Shown here one piece after another: positions 7,641-24,799 of a stretch of DNA of 64,000 nt. The position numbers were made by a program, and so were the translations under genes. Every line of letters starts with the position of its first letter. Positions within the stretch are counted from its first letter, which is position 1. Origin of the DNA: Candidatus Woesebacteria bacterium GW2011_GWB1_33_22 (GTDB lineage Bacteria > Patescibacteriota > Microgenomatia > UBA8517); assembly GCA_000989765.1 (NCBI GenBank), contig LBOW01000001.1:47660-111659 (forward strand), read 5' to 3'. Under the pieces are notes generated by a model. It did no database searches and was not told the DNA's origin. It worked only from the letters and a program-made list of their open reading frames with translations.

Positions 7641-9167
7641 ATGAACAAAAAAGTAGTTTGGGTAGCAACACCAACATTTTTGTATAGAAATTATTTATAC
7701 CAGAAGATAATTTCTAAATTGCCTAGAAATTATAAGTTTCTATTAATAGGTACAGGTAGTGGATATTTTCTTGAAATTTTACAAAAAAGGGGTTTTCAGG
7801 GTACCGCTATTGACATATCTTCGGAATCTGTTTCTTGTGTTAAAAAAATATTAGATAAAAATAAAATACGAGTAAAAAAGGGAGATATTTTAAATTATCA
7901 AAGTAAAGAGAAATTTGATTTAATATTTTCCTTTGAGGTTATTGAGCATATCAAAGATGATCGCAAAGCCTTAAGTAATATGTACAAACTTTTAAAACCT
8001 GGAGGTAAGTTGATATTTTCGGTACCTGCACATATGAAAGCTTGGGGAAGGATGGATGAAATAGGTGGACATTTTCGTAGATACGAGAAGACAAGTTTAA
8101 CCGAATTGTTGTTAAAATGCGGTTTTAATATTGAAAATTTTTGGTCTTATGGTTTTCCATTTTTAAATGTTATTCAAAGGTTTAGTAAAACAGGCATGTT
8201 TGTTAAAAACTTTAATCATGGTATTTCGGTAAGTGAAAAAACTAAAAAATCTGGAATCAGAACTGATGCTGACCCAAGGTTTTCTTTTTTATATTCAAAC
8301 AAAATTCTATTATACCCATTTTTTTTAATTATGAATTTTTTTATTAAAACTGATTTAGGCTTTGGGTACCTAGTTGTTGCAGACAAAAAAATAAAAACAA
8401 AATTTTCAAACATATTAAAATCAATTCATAATAACTACGCAGTATTTAATGATGAAGTATTGGATGTCAAAGGTAGAACGATGATTGCTAGACAAATTAT
8501 AAAAGTTGTTTCAATATATAGAAATAATACTATTAAACCAAATTTAATGAAAATATTGGATATTGGTTGTTCTTCAGGTATAATTACAGACTATTTGTCT
8601 AAAGAATATGGTCAAGTTGTAGGGATTGATGTTGATAAAGAGTCAATAAATAGTGCCAAAAGTAAATTTAAAAATAAAAATTTAAATTTTTTAGTAAAAG
8701 ACGGTTCCAAAACTGGATTTCCTGATTCCTCCTTTGATGTAATAATTGCTAACCAAATTTATTATTGTTTTTTAAGACCAAAAGATTTTTTTGATGAAGT
8801 TTACCGACTATTAAAACCAGGAGGTATATGTTATTTTGGGGGAAGAAATAAATATACTCTTTGGGATGCACAATATAAACTTCCTCTCCTCTCGGTAATG
8901 CCAAGAAATTTGTCTGACTTTATGGTTAAAACAACGGGGCGTAGCGAAAAGTTTGAGGCTGAATATAGAACATATTGGCAATTGGAAAAAATGTGTAATA
9001 AATTTATAGTTGAAAAAATAACCCCCAAAGCGATTCATAATTATAAAAAATTCGGCTTTGAAAAATTTAAGAAATATAGATTGTTGTTCTCTTCGATACC
9101 TGAATTTGTATGGGCTATATTAGAACCGATACTACCGAATTTTGTTTGGATTTTGAAGAAAATGTAG
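7641..9167 (+). CDS. tandem (dual) class I SAM-dependent methyltransferase fusion
   Basis: Two complete MTase units. First: LLIGTGSGYF...FDLIFSFEVIEHIKDD...LKPGGKLIF. Second: ILDIGCSSGIITDYL...FDVIIANQ...LKPGGICYF. A hydrophobic linker (LLYPFFLIMNFFIKTDLGFGYLVV) lies between them. Confidence 0.75.
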   Translation: MNKKVVWVATPTFLYRNYLYQKIISKLPRNYKFLLIGTGSGYFLEILQKRGFQGTAIDISSESVSCVKKILDKNKIRVKKGDILNYQSKEKFDLIFSFEVIEHIKDDRKALSNMYKLLKPGGKLIFSVPAHMKAWGRMDEIGGHFRRYEKTSLTELLLKCGFNIENFWSYGFPFLNVIQRFSKTGMFVKNFNHGISVSEKTKKSGIRTDADPRFSFLYSNKILLYPFFLIMNFFIKTDLGFGYLVVADKKIKTKFSNILKSIHNNYAVFNDEVLDVKGRTMIARQIIKVVSIYRNNTIKPNLMKILDIGCSSGIITDYLSKEYGQVVGIDVDKESINSAKSKFKNKNLNFLVKDGSKTGFPDSSFDVIIANQIYYCFLRPKDFFDEVYRLLKPGGICYFGGRNKYTLWDAQYKLPLLSVMPRNLSDFMVKTTGRSEKFEAEYRTYWQLEKMCNKFIVEKITPKAIHNYKKFGFEKFKKYRLLFSSIPEFVWAILEPILPNFVWILKKM

Positions 9168-9181: not shown

Positions 9182-10180
9182 ATGATAACAACCAAAAAGA
9201 AAGATTTTTATAAAAATAAAAAAGTTTTAGTTACAGGAGGGTTAGGTTTTATAGGAAGTACACTTTGTATTGAATTAGTTAAATTAGGTGCAGATGTAAC
9301 GCTTATTGATTCTCTTGTGCCAGATTACGGCGGTAATTTATTTAATATTGATCCAATTAAAAATAAAGTAAAAGTTAATATATCTGATGTGCGAGATAGA
9401 TACAGCATGAACTATTTAGTTCAGAATAAAGACATAATGTTTAATTTGGCTGGAACATTAAGTCATGTTGATAGTATGCGAGATCCATATACAGATTTAG
9501 AAATTAATGTTACAAGTCAAGTCTCTATTTTAGAAGCGTGTAGGAATAATAATCCTAAAATAAAAATAATATTTGCAGGAACAAGAAATCAATATGGGAA
9601 AGCACAATACTTACCTGTAGATGAAAAACACCCACTTGAACCAACAGATGTTAATGGAATAAATTGTAATGCAGGAGAATATTATCATTTACTTTACAAT
9701 AAAGTTTATGGAATTAGGGCTTGTTCATTAAGATTAAGTAATACTTACGGGCCAAGACATCAAATGAAACATGAACGACAAGGGATTCTAAATTGGTTTT
9801 TAAGGCAGATTATGAACGGAGAACAGATCACTCTTCATGGAACAGGTACTCAAATACGAGATGCTCATTATGTTGACGATGTAGTTAATGCATTTATTTT
9901 AGCTGGCGCCTCTGATAATGTGTGGGGAGAAGTATTCAATACAGGCTGTACACCGATTTCTTTAAAAGATTATGTAGAAGCAGCAATAAAAATATATAGG
10001 AAAGGTGGTTATAAAATTATACCCTTTCCAGAAAATAGAAAACCAATTGAAATAGGAGATTATATCGCAGATTATTCAAAGATTAATAAAATGATTGGGT
10101 GGAAACCTAAATTTAATCTTGACACAGGTTTAAAGAGGACTTTTGAATACTATGACAAATACAAAAAATTTTATTGGTAA
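9182..10180 (+). CDS. NAD-dependent nucleotide-sugar epimerase/dehydratase (extended SDR)
   Basis: VLVTGGLGFIGS Rossmann motif and an extended SDR C-terminal region (SNTYGPR). Confidence 0.8.
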   Translation: MITTKKKDFYKNKKVLVTGGLGFIGSTLCIELVKLGADVTLIDSLVPDYGGNLFNIDPIKNKVKVNISDVRDRYSMNYLVQNKDIMFNLAGTLSHVDSMRDPYTDLEINVTSQVSILEACRNNNPKIKIIFAGTRNQYGKAQYLPVDEKHPLEPTDVNGINCNAGEYYHLLYNKVYGIRACSLRLSNTYGPRHQMKHERQGILNWFLRQIMNGEQITLHGTGTQIRDAHYVDDVVNAFILAGASDNVWGEVFNTGCTPISLKDYVEAAIKIYRKGGYKIIPFPENRKPIEIGDYIADYSKINKMIGWKPKFNLDTGLKRTFEYYDKYKKFYW

Positions 10181-10198
10181 AATAATATTATCTCACTA

Positions 10199-11296
10199 AT
10201 GTCTTCAAAAATAATAAAATTTGTTGATTTAGCGGGAGAATATAGAAATATCAAAAAAGAAATTAACCAAAGTGTTCAAAGAGTTTTGAACAGTGGGGTT
10301 TACGTTTTAGGACAAGAAGTAGAAAATTTTGAAAATAAATTTGCCTCTTATATTGGTACAAAATATGCTGTTGGGTTGGCTTCAGGTACTGATGCCTTAA
10401 CACTTGCTATAAAATCATTGAGTTTAAAGGAAGGCGAATCAATTTTAGTACCTGCAAATGTCTATCCTACAATTTTTGGAGTTGCACTTTCGGGAATAAA
10501 AATAAAACTAACAGATGTTAATCCAAAAAGTTTAAATATTGATATTGAGAATATAAAAAAATATTACTCTAGAGAGGTAAAAGCAGTTTTAGTGGTTCAT
10601 TTGTATGGTAATCCTGTAGATATGTCTCCAATAGTTAAATTTTGCAAAGAGAAGAAGATATATCTGATTGAAGATTGTGCCCAAGCTACAGGTAGTATAT
10701 ATAAAAATAAAAAAGTTGGATCATTCGGAGACGTCTCCTGTTTTAGTTTTTATCCAACTAAAAATCTTGGAACTTATGGTGATGGTGGAGCAGTTTTAAC
10801 AAATAATAAAAAAATTTATGAGAAGGTAAAAAGTCTTAGAATGTATGGTGAACAAGGAAGATACAATAGTCTTGAGATTGGCCACAATAGCAGACTTGAT
10901 GAAATTCACGCTGCTATTTTATCTGTTAAATTAAAACATATTGATAAATGGAATTTGAAAAGGCGTAAAATAGCTAAACTTTACAATTTACTTTTAACAA
11001 AAAAGGGGATAGATGTGGTTGAAGAAAATAGATTAGGGAAATCAAATTATCACCTGTATGTTATAAAGATAAACAACAGGCAAAAATTGATGGATAATTT
11101 AAGAACTCATGGTATCCCTTCTGTTATTCATTATCCACTTCCAATACATTTTGTTAAATCATTTTCGTATTTAGGATATAAAAAAGGTAGTTTTCCCATT
11201 ACTGAAAAATATACGGAGCGTATTCTCACATTACCAATATATCCTGAAATAAAACAAGATGACATAATTAAAATATGCCAATTAATTAAAATATGA
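10199..11296 (+). CDS. DegT/DnrJ/EryC1/StrS-family PLP-dependent sugar aminotransferase
   Basis: SFYPTKNLGTYGDGGAV with the catalytic Lys; whole-length family architecture (about 365 aa). Confidence 0.85.
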   Translation: MSSKIIKFVDLAGEYRNIKKEINQSVQRVLNSGVYVLGQEVENFENKFASYIGTKYAVGLASGTDALTLAIKSLSLKEGESILVPANVYPTIFGVALSGIKIKLTDVNPKSLNIDIENIKKYYSREVKAVLVVHLYGNPVDMSPIVKFCKEKKIYLIEDCAQATGSIYKNKKVGSFGDVSCFSFYPTKNLGTYGDGGAVLTNNKKIYEKVKSLRMYGEQGRYNSLEIGHNSRLDEIHAAILSVKLKHIDKWNLKRRKIAKLYNLLLTKKGIDVVEENRLGKSNYHLYVIKINNRQKLMDNLRTHGIPSVIHYPLPIHFVKSFSYLGYKKGSFPITEKYTERILTLPIYPEIKQDDIIKICQLIKI

Positions 11297-12537
11297 AAAT
11301 TTGTATTCTCACACACACATTTCCAAGATTTGAAAAAGACGTTGCCGCACCATTTATGGATGGAGTAGCTACTGGAATGGTTGAAAATAAAAATGAAGTA
11401 ATTGTACTAACCCCATTTTCATCTAAATTTAGTAAGTTTTTAAAATCTAAAAAATATAAACTTGTGTTATATAAATACGCACCGTTTAAAAGTTGGCACA
11501 AGTTAGGTTATTCAGAGACACTAACTGATGATAAAACTTTAAAATTTACGAATCTTTTACTTTCTCCCTTTATGTTTACTTTTGGAATATTAGCTTTGTA
11601 TAAATTAGTGAAAAAAGAAAAAATTGATATTATTAATGCTCACTGGATCTTACCAAATGGATTTATTGCCTGCGTAGTGTCAAGATTAACAGGTGTTCCT
11701 GTGGTTTCAACTTTGCCTGGATCTGATGTTTATATGGCAGATAGAAATAATCTTTATAGATATATGGCAAAATTTGCATCCGAGACATCAAAGGCAATAT
11801 CGAGCAATAGTCCACAGTTATTGGTAGATTTAGCTAAAATTTGTGAAAAATTGGGAACTAAAAAAGGATTAATCCAAAAAAAATCTTATCCAATCATGTA
11901 TGGTGTTGATCCAAAGAAGTTTTATCCAACCACAAAAAATATTACATCAATTAGAAAAAAGCTAAAAATTTTAGGAGACAATATTATAATTTCTTCGGTA
12001 GGAAGACTAGTCTCCAAAAAAGGATATAAATATTTGGTTGAGGCAGCACCGAAAATTATTAAAGAAAATAAAAAGGTAACATTTGCAATATTTGGTGAGG
12101 GTGACCAAAGAAAAGAATTAGAAAAAAGAGTGTTAGAACTTGGTCTAGAAGATAATTTTCGTTTTCCTGGGTGGGTAAAATATGATGAAATCCTTTATTA
12201 TCAAAATCTTGGAGATATCTTTATACTACCTTCTATTCGTGACGAGGAAGGTAATCTAGATGACCAATCTGTTTCTGTTGTAGAAGCTATGGCTTGTGCA
12301 AAACCCATAATCACCACAGACTTTCCTGGATATAGGATAGTTATGAGAAATGGCAGAAATGGTTACCTTGTTCCTGAAAAAAATGCACAAAAAATGTCAC
12401 AGGCTATTATTAAATTAATTGGTTCGCCAAAACTAAGAGATGATATGGGAAAAACGTCTCGTGAACTTGTGCTAAATCATTTTTCGTGGGATTCGATTGG
12501 AAAAGAGTATACTTTTCTTTTTGAAAAACTGTTGTAG
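11293..12537 (+). CDS. glycosyltransferase, GT-B fold (GT4-like)
   Basis: C-terminal VVEAMACAKPIITTDFPGY...NGYLV motif; N-terminal MKICILTHTFP. ATGA overlap with the upstream gene. Confidence 0.8.
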   Translation: MKICILTHTFPRFEKDVAAPFMDGVATGMVENKNEVIVLTPFSSKFSKFLKSKKYKLVLYKYAPFKSWHKLGYSETLTDDKTLKFTNLLLSPFMFTFGILALYKLVKKEKIDIINAHWILPNGFIACVVSRLTGVPVVSTLPGSDVYMADRNNLYRYMAKFASETSKAISSNSPQLLVDLAKICEKLGTKKGLIQKKSYPIMYGVDPKKFYPTTKNITSIRKKLKILGDNIIISSVGRLVSKKGYKYLVEAAPKIIKENKKVTFAIFGEGDQRKELEKRVLELGLEDNFRFPGWVKYDEILYYQNLGDIFILPSIRDEEGNLDDQSVSVVEAMACAKPIITTDFPGYRIVMRNGRNGYLVPEKNAQKMSQAIIKLIGSPKLRDDMGKTSRELVLNHFSWDSIGKEYTFLFEKLL

Positions 12538-12549: not shown

Positions 12550-14598
12550 ATGCAAAAAAAAATTTCTATTTTTATTGGTATAATCTTTTTTATTTTCGGT
12601 ATTTTAACTCTTCCAGACTATGGAATTAATTGGGATACGGTTAACCATATTCCAAGGGGTCAAATATACCTCCAATATTTGTTAACAGGTGAAAAAGATT
12701 ATTCAAAACTTCCTGCGTACAAAAAATATTGGCAAAAACCAGAGGAACTTTTGTTAGATAAAGGCCAGCGTAATTTAAAAGGTCCATTGAGAAGTTATTA
12801 TCAAAGCGATGCCTACACATTTGATTGGTATATGGAAATTGATGGTACTGGACATCCCCCCTTAAGTGATATTATTTCATCGATCTTTAACAGAGTATTG
12901 TTTGGTAGGTTGAAAATAATCAACGATATTGATTCCTATCGGGTATATGGAGTTTTTTTAGCTTCTATATTAGTCGGATTGATCTACTATTGGATTAGTG
13001 GTTTGTATGGTAAATTTGCAGGCATAATTGCCTCCCTATCATTAGCAACCTATCCATTGTTTTTTGCGGAAAGCCATTTTAATACAGAAAAAGATGTTCC
13101 CGAAACTGTTTATTGGTCATTATTTTTGTATTGTATCTGGAAAGGATTTACGAATAAAAATTGGAAGTGGATATTAGTCTCAGGACTTTTATTTGGTTTA
13201 GCACTAGGAACTAAGTTTAACATTCTATTCTCGATTTTTGTAATTTTACCTTGGTTGCTAATTTTTTTAAAGAAAAGATTATTTGATAAAGTTAATTTAA
13301 ATTTAATTTTTGTAGGTTTTATTGCCCTTTTTATTGGTATTTTAATATTTATTAGTTCTTGGCCATTTTTGTGGCAGGATATTATTTCAGGGGTACAAAA
13401 AGTGTTTGGATTTTATAAGACAATTGGCACCTCGGTAAAGTTTGACACCCAATTTACAGGACCATTTGGAATTAATACCTATCCTTTTTATTGGATAATT
13501 TATACAACTCCAGTTTTAGTTTTAATATTATCTTTTTTTGGTTTAATTTCTTTGTGGGTTGATAGGAAAAAAGATCAGTTTTCAACAGGTTTGCTATTTG
13601 TTTTGTGGTTTATGGTTCCGATTGTCAGAGTAATGATTCCGCATAGTAATGTCTATGGAGGTATAAGACAGGTTATGGAGTACATTCCAGCAATGGCAAT
13701 TCTGGCAGGTATTGGCGCCAGTAAAATTATAAATATAATGAAAGTTGCTTGGTGGAAAAAACTTTCAATCTTTAGTATTTTGTTTTGTTTTGTTTTGATT
13801 ATGTTTAATCTCGTTAAAATACATCCAAATGAAAATGCATTTTTTAATATTTTAATCGGAGGATTATCAGGAGCTAAACAAAGTAATATACCTTCTTGGG
13901 GTAATACATTTGGAGCTGCATATAGACAAGGTGTCGTTTGGATTAATCAAAATGCTAAACCAAATTCAAGATTAGCATATGCCCATGGACTTATGCCAGA
14001 TATACCTCTAATTTGGATCCGACCAGATATAGACACAAGTAACACTAATAGAAGTGGTTTTTTGAGAAATGGAGAATATGTTATTGGTCTTGTTTATGAA
14101 GGAATTTCGAATAGTTTTTATTTTGATGACTATTTAGAAAAAATAGTACAGCCTATGTATAAATCAGGTATTGATGGAGTAACTTTAGTTGGAGTTTGGA
14201 AAAACGAGGATGAACAAATAAAACCTGAATACAAAAAACAAAATATTATAAAAAATATTAGTTGGAAGAAAAGTGACAAAAATGGAGAAATTATAGTTGA
14301 TTTAAATAAAGTCTATACATTGTCATATTTAAAAATGGGTTACAGTGAAAGAGGATGCGCTTCACTAAAATATGGTATTGTTTATTTGTCATCAGATAAT
14401 AAGTTGTGGGTAGAGCTTCGTGATAAATTACCTATGGATGAAATACCACCCCTAAAAGCAATACAACCTTCTAAAGGTCAATTTTATTATCCGTTTGTTG
14501 CGGAGCAAGCTAGATATATTAAAATTAACGTTGATCCAATTACTTCATGTCTAACAAATAAGGCGACTTCAGTGGAAGTTTATAGTTTAGGTTATTGA
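12550..14598 (+). CDS. GT-C fold membrane glycosyltransferase (ArnT/PMT-like) with C-terminal beta-rich putative carbohydrate-binding domain; paralog of 40446-42527
   Basis: N-terminal TM followed by DYGINWD in the first extracytoplasmic loop; the paralog reads DYGINWDE, the ArnT/PMT DE motif. About 11 TM helices, then a roughly 230-aa C-terminal soluble region ending in a discoidin-like stretch. Shared blocks with 40446-42527: GHPPLSDI / GHPALNGV, TYPLFFAESHFN / TYPLFVGEQHFN, IHPNENAFFN / IHPNENVFFN. Confidence 0.6.
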   Translation: MQKKISIFIGIIFFIFGILTLPDYGINWDTVNHIPRGQIYLQYLLTGEKDYSKLPAYKKYWQKPEELLLDKGQRNLKGPLRSYYQSDAYTFDWYMEIDGTGHPPLSDIISSIFNRVLFGRLKIINDIDSYRVYGVFLASILVGLIYYWISGLYGKFAGIIASLSLATYPLFFAESHFNTEKDVPETVYWSLFLYCIWKGFTNKNWKWILVSGLLFGLALGTKFNILFSIFVILPWLLIFLKKRLFDKVNLNLIFVGFIALFIGILIFISSWPFLWQDIISGVQKVFGFYKTIGTSVKFDTQFTGPFGINTYPFYWIIYTTPVLVLILSFFGLISLWVDRKKDQFSTGLLFVLWFMVPIVRVMIPHSNVYGGIRQVMEYIPAMAILAGIGASKIINIMKVAWWKKLSIFSILFCFVLIMFNLVKIHPNENAFFNILIGGLSGAKQSNIPSWGNTFGAAYRQGVVWINQNAKPNSRLAYAHGLMPDIPLIWIRPDIDTSNTNRSGFLRNGEYVIGLVYEGISNSFYFDDYLEKIVQPMYKSGIDGVTLVGVWKNEDEQIKPEYKKQNIIKNISWKKSDKNGEIIVDLNKVYTLSYLKMGYSERGCASLKYGIVYLSSDNKLWVELRDKLPMDEIPPLKAIQPSKGQFYYPFVAEQARYIKINVDPITSCLTNKATSVEVYSLGY

Positions 14599-14632: not shown

Positions 14633-15178
14633 ATGAAAGTAGTCAAATTGATAACTATATTGGTGGCAGTGACTTTCTGTCTTTTTACATTAAATCTAAA
14701 GGCTCTAGCAGTATCTTCTGACCCAAGTCCTAATCCGACCAAGGTTGATTCATTCGAGCTATTTTGGCCAATTGTAGCAGGAAAAGTTCAAGGTGATTCG
14801 ATGTATCGTTTAAAAATTTTTAAGGAAAATATGCGTGGATATTTAATTTTGAGTAGTTTGAAAAAAGCAGAGTATCTTACTTTTATTTCGAGTAAACGAC
14901 TAGTAGAATTTGAAGAGCTCGCTTTATCGAGAAAAAATTTTGAGAACGCTACTAAGACTTTAGAAGTATATAGATCTACTCAAAAAAAGATTTTTTCTTA
15001 TCTTGATAAAGCAAAAAGCGAGGGTGTTATGATCACAAATACTCAAAGTATTATAGAGGATACACTCAATAGGCAGCTTACATTACTAAATTATATTCTT
15101 CTTGGTGTGGATAATTCACAAAAGACAGGTGTAGAGGGTGCTATATCTTTTATAAATTCAGAGTTAGAAAAGTTTTAA
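14633..15178 (+). CDS. secreted/N-terminally anchored protein, DUF5667-like
   Basis: Signal/anchor MKVVKLITILVAVTFCLF. The MYRLKIFKENMRGYLILSSLKKAEYLTFISSKRLVEFEEL region resembles the DUF5667 pattern common in CPR genomes. Confidence 0.45.
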   Translation: MKVVKLITILVAVTFCLFTLNLKALAVSSDPSPNPTKVDSFELFWPIVAGKVQGDSMYRLKIFKENMRGYLILSSLKKAEYLTFISSKRLVEFEELALSRKNFENATKTLEVYRSTQKKIFSYLDKAKSEGVMITNTQSIIEDTLNRQLTLLNYILLGVDNSQKTGVEGAISFINSELEKF

Positions 15179-16120
15179 TTAAAATAGTTTTTCTTCAATA
15201 TACTTTTCTGTCAGATTTTCTTTTTGATCTAAGTTAACCAGCATTTCAGCAAGAAGTCCTGTCGTAATTAATTGTATACCTATTATCATTAATAACATTC
15301 CTAGGAACAATAAAGGCTGTCTGTATTGTATTGTGCCTGTAAATACTCTCAAATAAGTAATATATACACCTATTAAAAATCCAATAAATGATAACATTAT
15401 TCCAATTGTTCCAAAAAAATGAGCTGGTTTTTTCATATATCCCGTAAGAAAAGTTACAGTTAGCATGTCTAAAAATCCTTTAATGTTTCTTTGCCAACCA
15501 AATTTACTTTTACCGTATTTTCTTGGTCTATGGATTACTATTATTTCACCTACTTTAAAATTTTGTTTTTCAGCTAAAACTGGAATATATTTATACAATT
15601 CTCCGTATAGGTGTAGATTCTCGACGACGACCCTTTTATAAGCTTTAAGGCCACAATTAAGGTCGTGAATTTTTATACCAGTTAATAATCTTGTTGTCCA
15701 ATTACCAAGTTTTGATGGTAAAGTCTTGGATATTGGATCATGACGGTTCTTTTTCCAACCAGATACTAAATCATACCCTTCACCAAGCATTTTGATAAGT
15801 TTAGGAATTTCTATCGGATTATCTTGTAGATCTGCATCCATAGTAATAATTATCTCTCCATTTGAGTTTTCGAAACCTGCTTGTAAGGCAATAGATTTAC
15901 CAAACCAACCTCTTAGTTTTACTATTTTAATTTTTTTATCCAACTTGTGGAGTTTTTCCAAAATTTGATATGATTTGTCAGTTGAGCCATCATCAACAAA
16001 AACAATTTGGTAATTTATTTTGTTCTTTTTAACTACATCAATAATTTCTAGATATAGTTTTTCTATAGACTCCTCCTCATTTTTAATTGGAATTACAATG
16101 GAAATTAGAAATTTGTTCAT
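15179..16120 (-). CDS. polyprenyl-phosphate glycosyltransferase (GT2, GtrB/ArnC/DPM1-like) with C-terminal TM helices
   Basis: MNKFLISIVIPIKNEE...VFVDDGSTDKS...MDADLQDNP plus two C-terminal TM helices, the typical Und-P-sugar synthase architecture. The six-frame ORF extends to 16132 with a TTG; the ATG at 16120 is the more likely start. Confidence 0.8.
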   Translation of the reverse strand: MNKFLISIVIPIKNEEESIEKLYLEIIDVVKKNKINYQIVFVDDGSTDKSYQILEKLHKLDKKIKIVKLRGWFGKSIALQAGFENSNGEIIITMDADLQDNPIEIPKLIKMLGEGYDLVSGWKKNRHDPISKTLPSKLGNWTTRLLTGIKIHDLNCGLKAYKRVVVENLHLYGELYKYIPVLAEKQNFKVGEIIVIHRPRKYGKSKFGWQRNIKGFLDMLTVTFLTGYMKKPAHFFGTIGIMLSFIGFLIGVYITYLRVFTGTIQYRQPLLFLGMLLMIIGIQLITTGLLAEMLVNLDQKENLTEKYIEEKLF

Positions 16121-16170
16121 TATAAAAACCAATTATACCTTATTAATGCAAAGTGTGATATATTTTCTTT

Positions 16171-16668
16171 ATGTTAAAGCAGTTTATTATTGTTTTTTTC
16201 ACAGTTATTTTTCTAATCTTTATTTCAAGCACGAAACCCTTTTTAGTCATAGGTTCTGATGAATATATATTTGATACTCAAATCACGCAAAAAACAACTT
16301 TAATAAATAAGATTTTTGAGAAGACAGGTTTTTTAATTCGGTTGAATAAATCTAGTAAGGCAAAATATTGGAGAAAACTTGTGGATAAAAGGTTGGCCGA
16401 ATTCAAACTTGTTGTCGAGAATGACGATAAGGGAGCTTTCGAGGAAACTTCATCAAGATATTCAACCTATGTTGCCAATTATTCAGATTATCTTTTAAAT
16501 TCAAATTTAGTTAATGAAAAAAGTATCACCAAGCAGCAATTTGATAAACATCAAGAAATCTTAAACACATTTAAGGATAAATATGAATACAATTCTGCTT
16601 GGTGGATTTTAGTTATGCACCCAATTAATACGTTGGAAATCTTCAAATTAAAGGTCGAAAAATTATGA
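16171..16668 (+). CDS. N-terminally anchored protein, DUF5667-like (second copy)
   Basis: N-terminal hydrophobic helix. FLIRLNKSSKAKYWRKLVDKRLAEFKLVVEND resembles the same pattern as 14633-15178. Confidence 0.4.
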   Translation: MLKQFIIVFFTVIFLIFISSTKPFLVIGSDEYIFDTQITQKTTLINKIFEKTGFLIRLNKSSKAKYWRKLVDKRLAEFKLVVENDDKGAFEETSSRYSTYVANYSDYLLNSNLVNEKSITKQQFDKHQEILNTFKDKYEYNSAWWILVMHPINTLEIFKLKVEKL

Positions 16669-17693
16669 CAAAAGGAAACGAGCCAAAAATTTCGATAATC
16701 ACACCAACATTAAATTCTTCGAGAACAATAAAATTATATTTTGAAGCAATAAAAATGCAAAAATATAATGGTAGTGTAGAAGTGTTAATTATAGATGGTG
16801 GAAGTATGGATGACACACTAGATTTCGCTAAAAAGTATAATAATAAAATATTTTTTAATAAATTAAAAACAGCAGAATCTGGTAAGGCCTTGGGTGTTAA
16901 AAAATCTACTGGTTCAATATGTGCTTTTATTGATTCAGATAATATTCTACCAGATAAAGACTGGTTAAGAAAAATGATTTTGCCGTTTATGATAGATTCT
17001 CAAATTATGGCAACTGAGCCGATAAAGTTCACATATCGCGTAAAGGACCATTGGCTTACTAGATATTTTGCATTAATAGGTATGGGAGATCCTATAAATT
17101 TATTTATTGGTAATTATGATAAATATAGTTACATTACAAATAAGTGGACGAACCTAAAACTTAAGGAAGAAAACAAAAATGGGTATAGAAAAGTAAAGCT
17201 TGAAAATAGAATACCCACAATTGGAGCAAATGGGTTTCTAATAAAAAAAGAAGCACTGACTAGCTACGAACTTGGTGACTATTTGTTTGATGTCGATTTA
17301 CTTGAAACGTTAACCAAAAGAAGCCCAATATTCATTTCTAAGGTTGATGTTGGGATTGTTCATCTTTTTTCAGGTGATATAAGCACATTTATTAGAAAAC
17401 AACGTAGAAGGATTAGAGATTATCTTTATCATTATTATTATAAAAATTCTAAAAAAACTGAAAATTCGCTTGAATCTCCATTCATTTTTTGGGGTATTGT
17501 AAAATTCATCGCATCTTGTATATCCGTATTTCCCTTAATATTTCAGTTATTTGTGGGTTTTACAAGAAAACGAGATGTTGTTTGGTTGTTTCATATACCT
17601 GCTTGTTATATTACTCTTTTTGTTTATACTTACGAAACAGTTAGATCGCTATTTATCAAAGAAGAGTATAGTCGAGTGAATTGGAAACAATGA
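16665..17693 (+). CDS. glycosyltransferase family 2 with C-terminal TM helices
   Basis: KISIITPTLNSSRTI...LIIDGGSMDDT...FIDSDN; C-terminal hydrophobic helices. Confidence 0.75.
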   Translation: MTKGNEPKISIITPTLNSSRTIKLYFEAIKMQKYNGSVEVLIIDGGSMDDTLDFAKKYNNKIFFNKLKTAESGKALGVKKSTGSICAFIDSDNILPDKDWLRKMILPFMIDSQIMATEPIKFTYRVKDHWLTRYFALIGMGDPINLFIGNYDKYSYITNKWTNLKLKEENKNGYRKVKLENRIPTIGANGFLIKKEALTSYELGDYLFDVDLLETLTKRSPIFISKVDVGIVHLFSGDISTFIRKQRRRIRDYLYHYYYKNSKKTENSLESPFIFWGIVKFIASCISVFPLIFQLFVGFTRKRDVVWLFHIPACYITLFVYTYETVRSLFIKEEYSRVNWKQ

Positions 17694-18736
17694 GAAAACT
17701 AAAACCCAAAGTATCAATTATTATAACCAATTATAACGGAGGTCAAATTCTTTTAGATTGTATCGAATCCGTCAAAAAAATTGATTACCCAAATTTCGAG
17801 GTTATTTTAATAGATGATAGGTCAAAGGATGATAGTTTTGAGATGGCAACAAAAAATAAAGGTAAATTAAAATTAATATCATCTCGTAACAAAGTTAATC
17901 TTGGATTTGCAGGTGCAAATAATGCTGGCTTAGAGTTGGCAACTGGTGATTATATATTACTTCTTAATAATGATACAAAGGTTGACAAAAACTTGTTGGC
18001 AAAATTGGTTGATAAATTTGAATCTGATTTGTCAATTGGAGCTGGTCAGTCAAAGATACGTTTTATGGATAAACCGGAATATTTAGACAATGCTGGTTCA
18101 TTTTTAACACGAACTGGTTTTTTGGTGCATTGGGGATTTGGGAGTCGAGATTCTAAAGAATTTAATTCAGAAAAAAAAATATTCTCTGCTAAGGGAGCCT
18201 GTTTATTTATAAGACGAAAAGTTATCGATACGGTAGGTCTTTTTGATGCTGACTTTGTAAGTTATATTGAAGAATCTGATTTTTGTTGGAGGGTGTGGTT
18301 GGCTGGATATAAAGTAATCTTTTACCCAGAAACTTATATATTACATAAGGTTGGATTTACTTTTAGTAAACAATTTAATCCAATTACGGTAAATTATAAT
18401 TCGTTTAAAAACAGAATTTTGTCGTTATATAAAAATCTTGAAACCAAAAATCTAATATTAATTTTAATACCACATTTATTTATAATTTTGGGTCTATCTC
18501 TTTATTATTTAATTAAATTACAGTTTGCAAAATCATCGATGATAATTAGAGCTATTTGGTGGAATGTAGTGAATTTTCAAAAATCCCTTAAGAAAAGAAT
18601 GATTGTTCAAAATTTAAGAGTTAAAACAGACGATGAATTATTTAAAACGATTATGAAAAAGTTTGTCTTTAAAGAAATGTTTTCTCATTTTCTTAAGGTA
18701 GAGGCTAATTTTGCCACAAAACGGACTACTAAATGA
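17681..18736 (+). CDS. glycosyltransferase family 2 (WbbL-like rhamnosyl/hexosyltransferase type)
   Basis: KVSIIITNYNGGQILLDCIESV...ILIDDRSKDDS...LLNNDT...; C-terminal TM. Confidence 0.8.
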   Translation: METMRKLKPKVSIIITNYNGGQILLDCIESVKKIDYPNFEVILIDDRSKDDSFEMATKNKGKLKLISSRNKVNLGFAGANNAGLELATGDYILLLNNDTKVDKNLLAKLVDKFESDLSIGAGQSKIRFMDKPEYLDNAGSFLTRTGFLVHWGFGSRDSKEFNSEKKIFSAKGACLFIRRKVIDTVGLFDADFVSYIEESDFCWRVWLAGYKVIFYPETYILHKVGFTFSKQFNPITVNYNSFKNRILSLYKNLETKNLILILIPHLFIILGLSLYYLIKLQFAKSSMIIRAIWWNVVNFQKSLKKRMIVQNLRVKTDDELFKTIMKKFVFKEMFSHFLKVEANFATKRTTK

Positions 18737-19413
18737 TTAAAAATTTCACTTTTAAAGTGCCGATTTCTGGAAGAGTTTTGGCATGTCTAAAACTTTTAAA
18801 TAAATTTAATGTTAATAATAAAACAATACTTGATGTTGGATCGTCTTTTGGTTGGCTAGAGAGAGAGATATTGAAAACTGGTAAATCAAATAAATTGATT
18901 GGTGTTGATCCTAATAAAGATGCAGTTATGTTTGCACAAAAAAAAGTCAAAGGGGCAAGGTTTTTGGTTGGAGACGCCTTAAATTTACCACTTAAGAATA
19001 ATCAGGTAGATGTGGTTACCTTGTTTGATGTAATTGAGCATGTTCCAGAGAACTTTGAGACTAAAGCTCTAAACGAAGTAAATAGGGTTTTAATGAAAGG
19101 TGGATTACTGTTTTTATCTACTCCTAATTCTAAATTTTTGTTAAATATTTTAGACGTAGCATACTTATTTGGTCATAGACACTATAAAAAAGAGCAATTG
19201 ATTAAATATTTAAAGAAATCTAAATTTAAGATCATTGAATCTAGAATTTTAGGGGGATACTGGTTTAGCATATATCTTATTTGGTTATATTTAACTAAAA
19301 GGATTACAGGAAACTTTCTCCCCAGAAATACTTTTTTAGAAAATAGGGAAGCGTCAGAATTTTTAAAAGATAATGGTATTCATACACATTTCATAGTTGC
19401 CAGGAAAATGTGA
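18733..19413 (+). CDS. class I SAM-dependent methyltransferase with C-terminal hydrophobic segment
   Basis: ILDVGSSFGW...VDVVTLFDVIEHVPE...MKGGLLFLSTPN; C-terminal hydrophobic stretch ILGGYWFSIYLIWLYL. Confidence 0.8.
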   Translation: MIKNFTFKVPISGRVLACLKLLNKFNVNNKTILDVGSSFGWLEREILKTGKSNKLIGVDPNKDAVMFAQKKVKGARFLVGDALNLPLKNNQVDVVTLFDVIEHVPENFETKALNEVNRVLMKGGLLFLSTPNSKFLLNILDVAYLFGHRHYKKEQLIKYLKKSKFKIIESRILGGYWFSIYLIWLYLTKRITGNFLPRNTFLENREASEFLKDNGIHTHFIVARKM

Positions 19414-19418
19414 ATAGT

Positions 19419-20345
19419 TTAGTGAAAACCAATTTTTTGGTGAATAAGGTATTCTGGTCTTTTTTTAACCTCATCATAAATACGTGCAAGATATTCACCT
19501 ATAATACCTAAGGTTATAAGTTGAACCCCGCCCATAAAAAGAATTGATGATATTGTTGATGTCCAACCCATAATTCCTAAATTAATAAAAAATTTGAGTA
19601 TAAAAAGTATAACAATTAAAACAAAAGCAAATCCGGAAAAAATAAAGCCTAATATGCTTGCGATTCTTAAAGGGACAAATGAGAAAGAAACAATTCCATC
19701 CATGGCTAGTTTAAAAAGCCTAGAAAAGCTTGCTTCATTTCCAGCATATCTTTTTGACCTTTCGTATATGACACCTGTTTGTTTAAAACCTGTCCAAGCT
19801 CTTAATCCACTAAAGTACTTATTTTTTTCAGGCAAATCAATAATTATGTTTACGATTTTTCTGTCTAATATTGAAAAAGTGCCAGCGTCAATTGGCATTT
19901 TTAAAAAAGATATTTTGTCAAATAGTTTATAAAAAGATTTAAATAAAAATTTTCTTACAAAACTCTCTTTTCTTTTTCGCTTAACACCATAAACTACATC
20001 ATACCCTTGTAATGATTTTTTATACATTTTTTCAATTATATGTGGTGGATCTTGCAAATCGGCATCCATTACGACCACTTTTTCACCTTTTGAATGGACT
20101 AATCCTGCTGTTATCGCGGGCATATGACCGAAATTTCTAGAAAAAGATATAATTTTAATATGATTATCTTTTTTGGAAATTGGGCGCAAAATGTTTAAAG
20201 AATTATCATAACTGCCATCATCAATAAAAATCACTTCATAGCTACTACTTATTTTCTGAAAAGTTGTTTTAATTTTCTCATAAAGAGTTTTGATGTTTCC
20301 TTCCTCATTGTAAATCGGAACAATAACTGATATCTTTAATTTCAT
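19419..20345 (-). CDS. polyprenyl-phosphate glycosyltransferase (GT2, GtrB/ArnC/DPM1-like), second copy
   Basis: MKLKISVIVPIYNEEGNI...VIFIDDGSYDNS...MDADLQDPP plus two C-terminal TM helices. The six-frame ORF extends to 20381; the start at 20345 is more plausible and relieves the overlap with the divergent gene. Confidence 0.8.
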   Translation of the reverse strand: MKLKISVIVPIYNEEGNIKTLYEKIKTTFQKISSSYEVIFIDDGSYDNSLNILRPISKKDNHIKIISFSRNFGHMPAITAGLVHSKGEKVVVMDADLQDPPHIIEKMYKKSLQGYDVVYGVKRKRKESFVRKFLFKSFYKLFDKISFLKMPIDAGTFSILDRKIVNIIIDLPEKNKYFSGLRAWTGFKQTGVIYERSKRYAGNEASFSRLFKLAMDGIVSFSFVPLRIASILGFIFSGFAFVLIVILFILKFFINLGIMGWTSTISSILFMGGVQLITLGIIGEYLARIYDEVKKRPEYLIHQKIGFH

Positions 20346-20363
20346 AAGTGCAATATTACTAGA

Positions 20364-21083
20364 ATGAAGTTGATTAAGCAAATTCTAATATTTTTTATAA
20401 CAATTTTCTTTAAGATTTTCTTTTTAGTGTTTGGCGAGCCTAAAATTTCTAGCAGATTAAGGTCTGTGGTTAATTTATACAAGGGAAATAGTTTTTCCTC
20501 ACTATTTAAAATTATAAGGGTTTGGGATGCTCCTTTTGAAGAAATCGAAAAAGCTGTGCCGGAAAACGGTAAAATTGTTGACTTGGGATGTGGTGATGGA
20601 ATTTTGGGAAATTATTTAGCTTTATCGTCCAAAAAAAGAAGTGTTGTTGGGATAGAATTTAATAAGAAAAGGATAAGTGAGGCAAATAAAGGCATAGTTA
20701 ATACTAAATTTGTCTATGGCGATATTTTAAAAAGTAACTTTACTAAAGCAGATGCAATTCTACTTATACACGTGCTTCATCATCTAGAATCCTATATAGA
20801 TCAAGAAAAGCTTCTAACTAAATGCAAAGAAAGATTAAATAGGGGGGGTAAGATAATTATTGCAGAGATAATAGAAAGACCTTTACATAAGTTTTTATTT
20901 ACAGCCTTAACAGATTTTTTAATTGTACCTATACTGTTTGAAGGAAGGTTAATGAATACAATGATACATTTTAGAACCTTAGACAAATGGAAAACATTAT
21001 TTAAGAGAATGGGATTTAAATATAAATACTCGTTAAATCATCAAAATATGCCTTTCTCACACGCCATTTTTACATTGGAGTAA
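20364..21083 (+). CDS. class I SAM-dependent methyltransferase with N-terminal hydrophobic helix
   Basis: IVDLGCGDGILGNYL...AILLIHVLHHL...LNRGGKIII; N-terminal helix ILIFFITIFFKIFFLVF. Confidence 0.75.
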   Translation: MKLIKQILIFFITIFFKIFFLVFGEPKISSRLRSVVNLYKGNSFSSLFKIIRVWDAPFEEIEKAVPENGKIVDLGCGDGILGNYLALSSKKRSVVGIEFNKKRISEANKGIVNTKFVYGDILKSNFTKADAILLIHVLHHLESYIDQEKLLTKCKERLNRGGKIIIAEIIERPLHKFLFTALTDFLIVPILFEGRLMNTMIHFRTLDKWKTLFKRMGFKYKYSLNHQNMPFSHAIFTLE

Positions 21084-22310
21084 CTAGATAAATTTTAATT
21101 TTTTAGCTGCAAAGAGAGTCATTTTCAGAAGCAACCATCCGTGAGAATAACGATTAATGTTTGTTTGACCATATGTTCTTTCTCGATATCTAGCAGGAAT
21201 TTCGCAAATTTTTAAATTGAGTTTGGTGGCGCCAAATAAAAGATCATAGTCTCCGAAAGGATCAAAATTGCCAAAGTAATTTCTATTATTACAAATTTTA
21301 ATGTAATCTTTACGGAACAAAGCTTTAGTTCCACAAAGCGTGTCATTTACTTTTTGATCTAATAAATAAGTAAAAATAAAACTAAATATTTTATTTCCAA
21401 AAAAGTTTAGCGTTTGCATTGCCTGTTTTTCTAATGGATAAACTAAACGAGAACCATTTGCAAAATCACAATATCCTTTCGAAATAGCTTCATAAAATTT
21501 GATTAAATCCTTAGGATTTACGGTCAGATCGGCATCAAGAATAATTAAGATATCGTTTTTGGCTTTTTTGAATCCTAATCTAACAGCATCTGCCTTACCT
21601 ACCCCCTGTTGTTTATATAATTTTGCTATATTTTTATTTTCTTTATTCTTATTAATCTCCTTCAAAATATAATCATAAGTTTTATCCTTAGATTTTCCTT
21701 CTACAAAAATAATTTCCATATTTTTACCTATTTTAGGTATTTTAGATATCATATTTGGGATATTTCCTTGTTCGTTTCTAGCTGGGATTATTATTGAAAC
21801 AGAATATTCCTTTGTTGGGGGACGCTTTTTAAAAATTATATAAGTAGTTAAACACAGATCGTTTATTAGTGGTAATTTTGCAACCAAAGTATTAATAAAT
21901 GAAGTTACGATGCCAAGATCGATAGGTAATAGAAATCTTTTACCTTTTCTAATAACATCAAATCCCTCTAGATTAAAAACATTTACAATATCATCAGTTG
22001 ATAACCAATTTGAAGGCTTATCTTCCTTTTTTCTTAAACCCAATTTTGTAGCAAAATTTAAAATAGGTTTCCAGAATTGATTAAAATAAATCACCACAAA
22101 CCTTGTATCTTTGTGTGAATATTTTTTTAATTTTTTTATCTCAAACTGTATATCATTCCAATGAGCAATTGTATTTGGAAGAACAATGTAATCATATCTC
22201 TGTGGCTGTATATTTGCGTTTGAATAAGTAAGTACTTTAGAACTCTTAGGTGTTAATTGACTTACTAACTTTTTAATATCTCGTTGGTAAAATTTAGAAA
22301 AAACCTTCAT
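21084..22310 (-). CDS. glycosyltransferase family 2 fused to an N-terminal about 160-aa methyltransferase-like remnant domain
   Basis: C-terminal SVSIIIPARNEQGNI...IFVEGKSKDKT...ILDADLTVNP (GT2). The N-terminal part (YDYIVLPNTIAHWNDIQ...) looks like MTase post-motif-II regions but lacks the GxGxG SAM motif. Confidence 0.7.
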   Translation of the reverse strand: MKVFSKFYQRDIKKLVSQLTPKSSKVLTYSNANIQPQRYDYIVLPNTIAHWNDIQFEIKKLKKYSHKDTRFVVIYFNQFWKPILNFATKLGLRKKEDKPSNWLSTDDIVNVFNLEGFDVIRKGKRFLLPIDLGIVTSFINTLVAKLPLINDLCLTTYIIFKKRPPTKEYSVSIIIPARNEQGNIPNMISKIPKIGKNMEIIFVEGKSKDKTYDYILKEINKNKENKNIAKLYKQQGVGKADAVRLGFKKAKNDILIILDADLTVNPKDLIKFYEAISKGYCDFANGSRLVYPLEKQAMQTLNFFGNKIFSFIFTYLLDQKVNDTLCGTKALFRKDYIKICNNRNYFGNFDPFGDYDLLFGATKLNLKICEIPARYRERTYGQTNINRYSHGWLLLKMTLFAAKKLKFI

Positions 22311-23248
22311 TTAAAGGTCTTTATATACCAATTAATTGTTTTGGTCAATCCTTCGCCAAGTTTTGTCTTAGCAACAAATCCAAATTCATTTTTTGCCTTT
22401 TGAATATTAAGTTTTCTTCTGATTTGACCATCGGGTCTGGTTTTATCCCAAATAATTTTTCCCTTATATTTCATTTTCGCAGCAATTAGAGCGACTAAAT
22501 CCTTGATCTTTATTTCGGAGTTTGATCCAATATTAATTGGATCAAGTTTATTATATCTTTGTGTTGCCATAACTATTGCCTCAGCGGCATCTTCTACATA
22601 CAAAAATTCTCTGGATGCTTTTCCTGTGCCCCATACTATTACGTTATTATTCGTTTTTTTAGCTTCATCTAGTTTTTTAATTAATGCGGGAATTACGTGT
22701 GAAGATTCTGGGTCAAAGTTGTCCCCTGGACCGTAAAGATTGACAGGTAATAGATATATTGAATTAAATCCAAATTGTTGTCTGTATGCTTGTGATTGTA
22801 CTAAAAGTATCTTTTTTGCTATTCCATAAGGTGCATTGGTTTCTTCAGGATATCCATTCCAAAGCGATTCTTCTTTAAACGGAACTGGTGTATTTTTGGG
22901 GTAAGAACAAACAGTTCCAATGCAAACAAATTTATGTACATGATTATTTTTAGCCGCCTCCATTAATTCTAAACCCATTATTGCATTATCATATAAAAGC
23001 GTACCAGGTAAGGAAGAGTTTTTTCCAATTCCACCAACATTTCCAGCTAAATGAATAACAATATCTATTCTTTTGGTCAATTTTTGGCAATTTATTCTAT
23101 CTCGTAAATCAAACTTATTACTGTCTGGTATAATAATGTTTCTTTCCTTTAATCCCTTTTTTAATAATATATTTTTAACATATTTTCCTAAAAAACCATT
23201 TCCACCTGTAAGCAAAATCTTATTATTTTTAAATTTAACTATTTTCAT
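22307..23248 (-). CDS. fcl: GDP-L-fucose synthase (GDP-4-keto-6-deoxy-D-mannose 3,5-epimerase/4-reductase)
   Basis: KILLTGGNGFLGKYV, EETNAPYGIAKK, NLYGPGDNFDPESSHVIPALIKK. These are the hallmark Fcl/WcaG motifs. Confidence 0.85.
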   Translation of the reverse strand: MKIVKFKNNKILLTGGNGFLGKYVKNILLKKGLKERNIIIPDSNKFDLRDRINCQKLTKRIDIVIHLAGNVGGIGKNSSLPGTLLYDNAIMGLELMEAAKNNHVHKFVCIGTVCSYPKNTPVPFKEESLWNGYPEETNAPYGIAKKILLVQSQAYRQQFGFNSIYLLPVNLYGPGDNFDPESSHVIPALIKKLDEAKKTNNNVIVWGTGKASREFLYVEDAAEAIVMATQRYNKLDPINIGSNSEIKIKDLVALIAAKMKYKGKIIWDKTRPDGQIRRKLNIQKAKNEFGFVAKTKLGEGLTKTINWYIKTFK

Positions 23249-24772
23249 TTAATATAAAAATTGTATCTTTTTACCACTTCTGTAATTTTTTGTTAAATCA
23301 ACAATATATCCCTTTTCCGAATCAAAATCTTTTGAAGGAATTCTATCATAGTTGTAATCAATAACCCACACTTTGTTTCTAATACTCCAATACTTATTTT
23401 CCCACCCATCGACAGGTATGGGAAAATCTACGTTTGGACTAACGAATTCTGTAATTAGAGCTGCAGGCCACTGTAAATATGAAGGTACAATTATTATAGA
23501 ATCTTTTTCAAATTGTGGTGATATATATTTAATATAGGAAATAAATTTTTTAAAGGCCTCAGATTTATATTGAATGGAATCAAAATGTCTCCATACCATA
23601 TTGGTATTGTTAGTCACAAATACAATTAATACAAATAATGTTGCTACTTTGTATGAAATTTCATTTTTTGTAAATAATGCTTTTAATAAAATCGCCCACA
23701 TAATAGCAGCAAAAAGGCTTGAAAAGATAAAATACCTGTCCTCTCCAAAATATTTGGTAACATCAAGTCTGGTGTCGACATACATATATAGAAACATTGT
23801 TGAAACCATTGACAATAATAACGAAATATATAAGGTTAATAGTCTGGGTGCTTTTTTAAAAACAAGCCATATTCCGCCAAAGTACATGACTAAGGTTATT
23901 GGTAAAAAAAACTTTACAACTGGTAAATAAGGATCTTTAATTGACGTAATCCAGTTTTGACCAATGAAACTAACTAAATTTAAAGGAATCGTAACTGTTG
24001 GTATTTGATATAAAAGTCTTTGGGTGAGATTTTCTTGGGTTTTCAAAAAATTTGCAAACCCCCCAAGAGGTTGTTGTTCGCTCTTGTTGGTTATATAAAA
24101 GGAAATTAAAAAAAATGTTGTACAAATTAAAATAACCCTAAAAATTTTATGTAAATTGGGTTTATCCTCAAACATTTTTACAATGGGATAAATAAGCAAA
24201 ATTGGTAGGGCGAGACTAGAAAAATGACCGGTAAATACTGCTAATCCCCAGAGTAAAAAGGCTACAATGAGATTTTTTATTTTTAAATTTTCTCCATATT
24301 TCCATAAAAAATAAAAAGAAAAAATAATTGGTATTATCCCTGGAAATCGTTGTGCAAATCTTTGATATGTTCCTGCACCCAAATACTCAAAAAGAGCTAT
24401 ATAATTAGTGGCAAAAAAAATGGTAGCAGAGAATGCTAATAACTTACTGTTAGTTATCCTATTTATTATTAGATAAAGGGAAATAAACAGGATATAAGCA
24501 ATTGTGAAAGAAAGAAGAAAATATGCAGTTATATTGTCACGAAATATTGGTGGAAGAATATCAAAAATTATTTTAGCAGAATTATCATAACCCCATACAT
24601 TTATACCGTTTTTAACAAAAAAGTTTAAATGAGGATTAAAATACATGTATCCTTCTCCCAGAAACACCTGTTTAAACATCTTATGCCAAACCAAAAAAGA
24701 TAATCCAAAAATTGCAGTAGTAGACACCCAATTTTTTTGATAGAATGATTTAATTTTAGATATGATTTTCAC
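23249..24772 (-). CDS. polytopic membrane protein with extracytoplasmic C-terminal domain (candidate GT-C-like glycosyltransferase/polymerase)
   Basis: About 12 TM helices followed by a roughly 120-aa hydrophilic C-terminus. GTG start inferred. No soluble catalytic motif. Confidence 0.5.
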   Translation of the reverse strand: MKIISKIKSFYQKNWVSTTAIFGLSFLVWHKMFKQVFLGEGYMYFNPHLNFFVKNGINVWGYDNSAKIIFDILPPIFRDNITAYFLLSFTIAYILFISLYLIINRITNSKLLAFSATIFFATNYIALFEYLGAGTYQRFAQRFPGIIPIIFSFYFLWKYGENLKIKNLIVAFLLWGLAVFTGHFSSLALPILLIYPIVKMFEDKPNLHKIFRVILICTTFFLISFYITNKSEQQPLGGFANFLKTQENLTQRLLYQIPTVTIPLNLVSFIGQNWITSIKDPYLPVVKFFLPITLVMYFGGIWLVFKKAPRLLTLYISLLLSMVSTMFLYMYVDTRLDVTKYFGEDRYFIFSSLFAAIMWAILLKALFTKNEISYKVATLFVLIVFVTNNTNMVWRHFDSIQYKSEAFKKFISYIKYISPQFEKDSIIIVPSYLQWPAALITEFVSPNVDFPIPVDGWENKYWSIRNKVWVIDYNYDRIPSKDFDSEKGYIVDLTKNYRSGKKIQFLY

Positions 24773-24799
24773 AAAAATATATTCTCATAATTCTACAAC

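Follow-up and report, generated by a model that had tools for sequence, protein, structure and literature searches.

Two anciently duplicated GT-C fold glycosyltransferase genes at the ends of a conserved core in a large Patescibacteria-type glycan locus

Results

The locus and its two GT-C genes

The window, by which we mean the whole 64-kb stretch of DNA analysed here, is one glycan-biosynthesis locus with a GC content of about 29%. Pfam matches identify four GT4 and about nine GT2 genes among its glycosyltransferases. Sugar-modification genes comprise at least seven SAM methyltransferases, three DegT aminotransferases, SDR epimerases/dehydratases and hexapeptide acyltransferases, and the window also encodes a carbamoyltransferase, an AsnB-type amidotransferase and many large membrane proteins. 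Two genes, at 3455 and 54829, code for Wzx-type flippases (Polysacc_synt, Wzx/MATE-like). No family match to GtrA was found in the window; the ORF at 50456 encodes a protein of 127 amino acids with 3 TM helices and without a family match.

Two of the large membrane proteins, here called A and B, are the subject of this study. The ORF for A lies at 12550-14598 (+) and encodes 682 amino acids, the ORF for B at 40446-42527 (-) and encodes 693. Both proteins are glycosyltransferases of the GT-C fold with the same architecture. Their coordinates and strands agree with a preliminary description of this DNA, which had also noted their opposite orientation and a spacing of ~26 kb (25,847 bp as measured). 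All-against-all BLAST shows that the window contains many paralogue pairs, of which A and B are one of several.

In BLASTP, A and B align along their whole length (675 residues with 33% identity and 54% positives; 324 bits, E 2e-105), and when B was shuffled 200 times, its score against A never rose above 25 bits. Five collinear motif blocks listed in the preliminary description are present in both proteins: DYGINWD; RSYYQ; GHPPLSDI/GHPALNGV; TYPLFFAESHFN/TYPLFVGEQHFN; and IHPNEN...WGN. The paralogy that it had proposed stands, at an identity (33-35%) slightly below the ~35-40% it had judged by eye. Identity amounts to 40% in residues 1-100, which contain the loop after TM1, and to 44% in the soluble residues 421-560 after the last TM segment; it is lowest, at 20%, in the C-terminal beta domain (561-682). 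The soluble regions are thus the most alike, which together with the low scores of the shuffled sequences rules out that the likeness is confined to low-complexity TM segments, a possibility that the preliminary description had itself raised. A profile of the family, run against 50 proteins of the window, gave strong matches for A and B only (more than 900 bits); next came the 57922(-) protein with an E-value of 4e-5.

Comparison of the DNA of A and B by megablast gave no match; similarity is limited to short stretches, in collinear order, at the conserved motifs, the best of them with 76% identity over 100 nt. Identity at third codon positions is 42%, that is, saturated, and no inverted DNA repeat was found between the two regions. 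A and B are full-length paralogues, and the lack of DNA-level similarity and the saturated third positions show that they stem from an old duplication, as originally suggested, and rule out an assembly repeat or a recent repeat.

Domains, fold and conserved residues

In A, a membrane domain (residues ~1-424) is followed by a soluble, presumably extracytoplasmic domain (~425-560) and a CBM32-like sandwich (~560-682). Hydropathy analysis detects at least nine strong TM segments in each protein, the last ending at residue 424 in A and 434 in B, in keeping with the ~7-13 N-terminal TM helices of a GT-C membrane domain. An alignment of 75 family members contains 46 invariant columns. The TM1 helix of A comprises residues 2-19, and the loop straight after it carries the motif DYGINWDTVNH (residues 23-33; 12616-12648, +), in which Y24, G25, W28, D29 and H33 are invariant. 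The equivalent loop of B reads DYGINWDEPFH (residues 28-38; 42414-42446, -) and keeps an Asp-Glu pair, D34 and E35. The first Asp of DYGINWD is variable, the second (D29 in A, ~10 residues beyond TM1, and D34 in B) is invariant in all 75 members and, by its position, is the putative catalytic Asp. As the Lys-rich N-terminus leads directly into TM1, the loop would be on the outer side of the membrane, where other GT-C enzymes have it too.

Further invariant residues in A are H176, F177, K181 and D182, K222 and N224, and R360, R373 and E377. The most conserved block of all, HPNENAFFN...GGLSGAK...SWGN (residues 425-452; 13822-13905, +), follows the last TM helix and contains the invariant residues P426, N429, F432, G438, G441, A442, W450 and G451. 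The CBM32/discoidin-like beta sandwich at the C-terminus (14227-14595, +) has two invariant cysteines, C603 and C667, and this pair is consistent with an extracytoplasmic location of the C-terminal domain.

The AlphaFold2 model of A, computed from the 75-sequence alignment (mean pLDDT 92.8, pTM 0.92), consists of a helical bundle (residues 1-424) and, beyond the last TM segment, an alpha/beta domain and the CBM32-like sandwich. Its matches among known folds include AftD, AftA and Emb, and ALG12 and ArnT outscore the PMTs. The similarity to solved GT-C structures and the acidic residue in the first loop after TM1 place A and B in the GT-C fold superfamily, GT-C_A class, although A and B share only 10-14% identity with any solved GT-C. 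In searches of the PDB by sequence, with A alone and then with the family profile, nothing significant was found, and ArnT was not retrieved.

Family assignments below the level of the fold are less firm. Pfam PMT_2 (PF13231) is matched by A with 54.4 bits and by B with 33.5 bits (cut-off 26.1), Pfam PMT (PF02366) by A with 19.5 bits, below the cut-off of 22.7, and by B with 23.0, just above it. A match of A to F5/8 type C at residues 559-661 is sub-threshold. Neither MIR nor PMT_4TMC is matched by A or B in Pfam at E <= 0.01, and NCBIfam has no family for A and B (E <= 0.01) or for the proteins encoded at 25741, 35065 and 37773. NCBI labels members of the family "glycosyltransferase family 39 protein" or "ArnT family glycosyltransferase", labels that we regard as generic: with a marginal PF02366 match, no ArnT model, no MIR or PMT_4TMC domain and no Asp-Glu pair in the clade of A, membership in GT39 or GT83 is not established. 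Of the earlier designation "ArnT/PMT-like GT-C", the GT-C fold is thus borne out by the model and the fold matches, but not an affiliation with GT39 or GT83 proper.

Family size, clades and clade-specific sites

At E <= 1e-30, a library clustered at 50% identity contains 1,037 representatives of the family, and those of its sources that are named belong to Woesebacteria, Daviesbacteria, Levybacteria, Microgenomates or "Patescibacteria group". Among the matches listed, at least 120 clusters are A-type (47-92% identity to A, 31-37% to B) and 60 are B-type (32-37% to A, 48-92% to B); 60 further family proteins have 34-39% identity to A and 35-42% to B. Clustering separates the A-type and B-type groups cleanly, and neighbour-joining bootstraps support clade A and clade B with 100/100 each, whereas the remaining proteins do not form one clade. 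A and B thus each have their own clade of orthologues in Microgenomates/Woesebacteria-type Patescibacteria, as judged from these sequences, and the duplication must be older than the split between those genomes in which both occur. Additional tandem or nearby copies occur in other loci, which indicates that the family duplicates repeatedly. A search of genome contigs with protein A alone returned at least one locus, a distant one. We found no description of the A/B family in the literature on CPR, Patescibacteria, Woesebacteria or Microgenomates; it is an uncharacterised, Microgenomates-restricted GT-C subfamily.

Seventeen positions are at least 90% conserved inside each clade and yet differ between clades A and B, a degree of within-clade conservation that is inflated by the sampling of clade members according to their similarity to A and B. 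Twelve of the 17 fall in residues 30-158, an enrichment over the other doubly conserved columns (12/38 versus 5/78, Fisher p = 6e-4). The residue immediately after the invariant Asp is Thr in 95% of clade A, but Glu throughout clade B (100%) and in 97% of the rest, and clade-specific sites also occur at the neighbouring positions 31, 32 and 35. The Asp-Glu ("DE") motif of the GT39/PMT loop 1 is therefore present in B and absent from A, which has Asp-Thr. Since the remaining family members share the state of B at 11 of the 17 sites and that of A at no site, we take B to represent the ancestral state and A the derived copy. The conserved, clade-specific sites around the loop support different specificities of A and B, one of the options in the preliminary description; the two enzymes are probably non-redundant, with different donors, acceptors or linkages.

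Gene order in the window and in related genomes

Upstream of A, genes for an SDR epimerase/dehydratase, a DegT aminotransferase and a GT4 (9182-12537, +; Pfam) are conserved in synteny. Downstream, A converges with an ArnC/GtrB/PgfS-like GT2 gene (15179-16132, -), a conserved neighbour, and two further GT2 genes (16665-17693 and 17681-18736; 16665-18736, +) belong to the conserved A-B core according to Pfam and the positions of their orthologues. At the other end, a tandem pair of genes for GT-C proteins with CBM32 domains (35065-37788 and 37773-40442; 35065-40442, +) precedes B, the second of them tail-to-tail with B at a distance of 3 nt. The protein encoded at 37773 was shown by fold search to be a GT-C; its family and the A/B family are aligned by hhalign with a probability of only 66%. 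Around B, a scan for promoters and terminators gave no excess of sites over shuffled sequence.

Between these core genes lies a variable cassette (18733-35064, both strands), which is absent, replaced or shorter in other genomes. According to Pfam, it contains methyltransferases, GT2s, epimerases, an oxidoreductase, acyltransferases and DegT aminotransferases, together with a second ArnC/PgfS-like GT2 (19419-20381, -) and a third PMT_2 GT-C (25741). Elsewhere in the window, at relaxed Pfam thresholds applied to the unassigned membrane proteins, the 61767(-) protein gave a weak, AftD-type hint only.

Paired contig look-ups in five other genomes gave A-B distances that we compared with that of the window. 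A and B are convergent in all six genomes that carry both, with gaps of 5.7 kb (SRR29054609_115946), 10.9 kb (GCA_034680565.1), 11.3 kb (GCA_040961665.1), 19.2 kb (AMFJ01010794), 25.8 kb (this window) and 27.6 kb (SRR22250817_12164). In all six, the gene after A is a GT2 of ~315 aa on the opposite strand, with two more GT2 genes behind it, and B stands tail-to-tail, with a gap or overlap of a few nt, with a gene for a discoidin-domain membrane protein of 837-907 aa. The most compact genome has the order A, GT2(-), GT2, GT2, GT-C/discoidin, B(-). The extra ~16 kb of the window (about 18733-35064), the sugar-modifying cassette, is absent there, and in AMFJ01010794 it is replaced by other genes (C-methyltransferase, cupin, MBOAT/AlgX). 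The ~26-kb block therefore consists of a conserved four-gene core and a variable sugar-modification cassette; the frame of the locus is conserved, and its middle varies.

A metagenome scan that kept only A-like loci, some of them redundant between samples, extends these observations. Of the 26 A-type loci that extend far enough downstream, 22 have an opposite-strand ArnC-like GT2 gene at most 3 kb from A, and in 14 of the 26 it is the direct neighbour of A; a GT4 like the one at 11293 lies directly upstream of A in 17 of 33. ArnC is the undecaprenyl-phosphate L-Ara4FN transferase. The 15179(-) and 19419(-) proteins match the NCBIfam models of ArnC (185 bits for the 15179(-) protein) and PgfS over their full length, below the equivalog cut-offs. 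The former has about 2 C-terminal TM helices, and the latter also has TM helices at its C-terminus. Both are probable polyprenyl-phosphate sugar synthases of the GtrB/ArnC type. A GT2 of this type is thus genetically linked to a GT-C, as in three-component systems.

Discussion

Together, our data suggest a model in which A and B are diverged GT-C paralogues that act outside the cytoplasmic membrane and transfer sugars from polyprenyl phosphate to a surface glycan with differing specificities, and we hold this model to be probable. A cytoplasmic ArnC/GtrB-like GT2, the 15179(-) protein and perhaps also the 19419(-) protein, would charge polyprenyl phosphate with a modified sugar. After the lipid-linked sugar had been flipped across the membrane, A or B would transfer it to the growing surface glycan, with the invariant Asp in the loop after TM1 as catalytic base. 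The CBM32-like domain may hold the glycan acceptor, as in EmbC, AftD and the GT136 enzyme ORF12. Overall, this would be "three-component" extracytoplasmic glycosylation within a very large Wzx-type glycan locus, and the convergent placement of A and B would be an inherited architecture with a variable cassette inserted in the middle of the core. The donor type, the topology, the glycan as acceptor and the different specificities we infer from GT-C biology and the three-component paradigm (PMC11127046).

Of the known systems, EmbA/B/C, AftD and ORF12 (GT136) resemble A and B in that a GT-C membrane domain is combined with an extracytoplasmic CBM. Systems of this type use a lipid-phosphate donor from a dedicated synthase and have several paralogous GT-Cs per pathway, and ORF12 is part of a pentofuranose three-component system (PMC11127046). 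In Gtr O-antigen glucosylation (GtrA flippase, GtrB synthase and a serotype-specific GT-C Gtr protein), a GtrB/ArnC-like GT2 is coupled to a GT-C as it is here, and paralogous GT-Cs would be expected to differ in linkage or position, as described for Shigella serotypes (PMC11127046). However, no GtrA homologue was found here, A and B are larger and have extra domains, and they are conserved core genes of a chromosomal locus, whereas Gtr is a phage-borne seroconversion cassette. ArnT, the 4-amino-4-deoxy-L-arabinose transferase with lipid A as acceptor, is the GT83 enzyme that works with ArnC and ArnB. Its fold (5F15/5EZM) is similar to that of A and B, but identity is only 14%, the NCBIfam ArnT model is not matched, A and B have additional soluble and CBM32-like domains (682 and 693 aa versus 541 residues in chain 5f15), and the host is a Patescibacteria-type bacterium. 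From the PMTs (GT39; Pmt1-Pmt2, 6P25/6P2R; Pmt4, 9E61), A and B are set apart by the missing MIR and PMT_4TMC domains, the marginal PF02366 scores, the Asp-Thr of clade A in place of Asp-Glu, and a CBM32-like C-terminal domain that is foreign to PMTs.

The last comparison bears on whether the acceptor might be a protein. A and B could be protein O-glycosyltransferases that, like PMT/GT39 or the streptococcal PgfS/PgfM1 pathway (PMC12041528), move a sugar from polyprenyl phosphate to Ser/Thr-rich regions, with secreted or membrane-anchored S-layer proteins, pilins or DUF5667 proteins as candidate targets. The PMT family matches and the Asp-Glu pair of B would fit, as would the PgfS-like GT2 and the recurrence of small anchored DUF5667 proteins. 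We nevertheless consider a protein acceptor unlikely. The C-terminal fold is that of a glycan-acceptor binder in Emb, AftD and GT136 enzymes, the domains typical of PMTs are missing, and ALG12 and ArnT, the better matches by fold, use non-protein acceptors. Moreover, with its two Wzx flippases, its many GT2 and GT4 genes and its sugar-modifying enzymes, the locus is of the classical polysaccharide kind.

Our preferred reading of a transfer to glycan can be taken further. The window could encode an extracytoplasmic glycan assembly line in the mycobacterial style in an ultra-small Patescibacteria cell, with at least ten GT-Cs, in which A/B and the 35065/37773 pair form paralogue heteromers of the EmbA-EmbB or Pmt1-Pmt2 kind. 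Fold or family evidence supports four GT-Cs, namely the proteins encoded at 35065 and 37773 as well as A and B, and PMT-type matches or acidic motifs after TM1 suggest several more in the window. We think this extended picture improbable, together with its companion proposals that clade A, with its Asp-Thr, is a mechanistically distinct subunit and that the A/B family founds a new CAZy GT family.

Could A and B be the two subunits of one heteromeric enzyme, both required for a single catalytic step? GT-C paralogue pairs have been solved as heterodimers (Pmt1-Pmt2, 6p2r; EmbA-EmbB, 7bvc), A and B occur in the same locus in all six genomes examined, and clade A (WDT), in which the Asp-Glu pair lacks its Glu, might be a modified or regulatory subunit. 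We find the idea decidedly doubtful, because among the matches listed the 90%-identity clusters of clade A outnumber those of clade B by a factor of at least two, and many A-type loci have no B within 10 kb. The two genes are never adjacent or co-oriented and keep separate conserved neighbours (the ArnC-like GT2 for A, the GT-C/CBM32 gene for B), and with the other invariant residues kept in both, A and B each appear catalytically competent as far as can be judged from their residues.

The preliminary description had also raised the idea that a multi-gene module was anciently duplicated and inverted, with A and B marking its ends; we reject it as hardly credible in spite of the opposite orientation of the two genes and the several other multicopy families of the window, since all-against-all BLAST finds no paralogues between the flanks of A (GT4, DUF5667, ArnC-like GT2) and those of B (GT-C/CBM32 (discoidin), methyltransferase, carbamoyltransferase), there is no inverted DNA repeat, and the compact relative with its 5.7-kb gap has four unrelated genes between A and B. 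Since the flanks hold no paralogues of each other, what was duplicated was one gene rather than a module.

Our preferred model of two glycan-directed enzymes with different specificities does not challenge the current understanding of GT-C enzymes: A and B form an uncharacterised subfamily of a known kind of enzyme, and as such are of modest interest. What the analysis contributes is a known mechanistic class for two hypothetical proteins and a correction of the idea of a module duplication. Moreover, the family is abundant, well conserved and confidently modelled, and none of its members has been characterised. In Patescibacteria (CPR), genomes are tiny and cell envelopes are poorly understood. 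One surface-glycan locus takes up at least 64 kb here; across Woesebacteria-type genomes its frame is conserved and its middle varies, as in an O-antigen or capsule locus. The main interest of our findings lies in the scale and the frame-and-middle design of this locus and in the clean divergence of the catalytic loop between the paralogues, as the change beside the putative catalytic Asp offers a handle on how GT-C specificities may diverge after duplication.

Gene duplication and GT-C-like enzymes

The family of GT-C fold membrane glycosyltransferases to which A (12550-14598, +) and B (40446-42527, -) belong has undergone repeated, independent duplications. Members occur in tandem or close together in other Microgenomates-type contigs (the metagenomic loci L025, L026, L054, L057, L073, L075, L076 and L087), and in L054 and L057 consecutive genes encode a B-like protein, a GT-C/discoidin protein and an A-like protein. 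The window also has a close relative, the 60-kb metagenome contig Ga0172379_10001027 (L010), which carries an A orthologue with 93% identity. Its counterparts of window ORFs 2409 to 23249 are collinear with them and share 80-98% amino-acid identity. The GT-C/discoidin enzyme at 37773-40442 (+) is 100% identical to the ENA protein P0241.

The window may contain at least ten GT-C-like enzymes, an unusual density. Seven further multi-transmembrane (TM) proteins are encoded at 2409-3446 (+), 23249-24772 (-), 25741-27930 (+), 45832-47496 (+), 50833-52170 (+), 57922-59424 (-) and 61767-63440 (-), several of which have PMT_2, PMT, PIG-V or weak AftD-type matches, or an acidic motif directly after TM1. 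These motifs, read by eye, are HADEG, QQDEL, KGDEVHY and YPDEITW.

Two very large proteins, of 991 aa (47480-50455, +) and 833 aa (52335-54836, +), lack a Pfam assignment; each has roughly 10 TM helices. The two are weak paralogues (23% identity over 405 aa), and counterparts at 43-54% identity lie downstream of B in two other genomes. Between 44 and 46 kb the GC content climbs to 0.35; in the rest of the window it is about 0.29.

DUF5667 proteins, gene fusions and probable glycan decoration

Two small DUF5667 proteins with N-terminal anchors (14633-15178, + and 16171-16668, +) flank the ArnC-like GT2 (15179-16132, -), and in many related loci their homologues again adjoin A or sit upstream of it. 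In the 14633 protein, the anchor is followed by the stretch SSDPSPNPT. It is possible that these proteins act as glycosylation acceptors, or as chain-length or assembly factors.

Three genes are fusions: a DegT aminotransferase with an SDR epimerase/dehydratase (29437-31521, +, 694 aa), which has a 688-aa counterpart in SRR22250817_12164, a contig carrying A and B; a double SAM-methyltransferase (7641-9167, +, 508 aa); and a hexapeptide acyltransferase with a GT2 (32636-33760, +, 374 aa). Together, the carbamoyltransferase (43392-45113, +), the AsnB-type amidotransferase (56097-57920, -) and the many SAM methyltransferase genes (at least seven in the window) imply that the glycan is heavily decorated, being carbamoylated, amidated, methylated and aminated.
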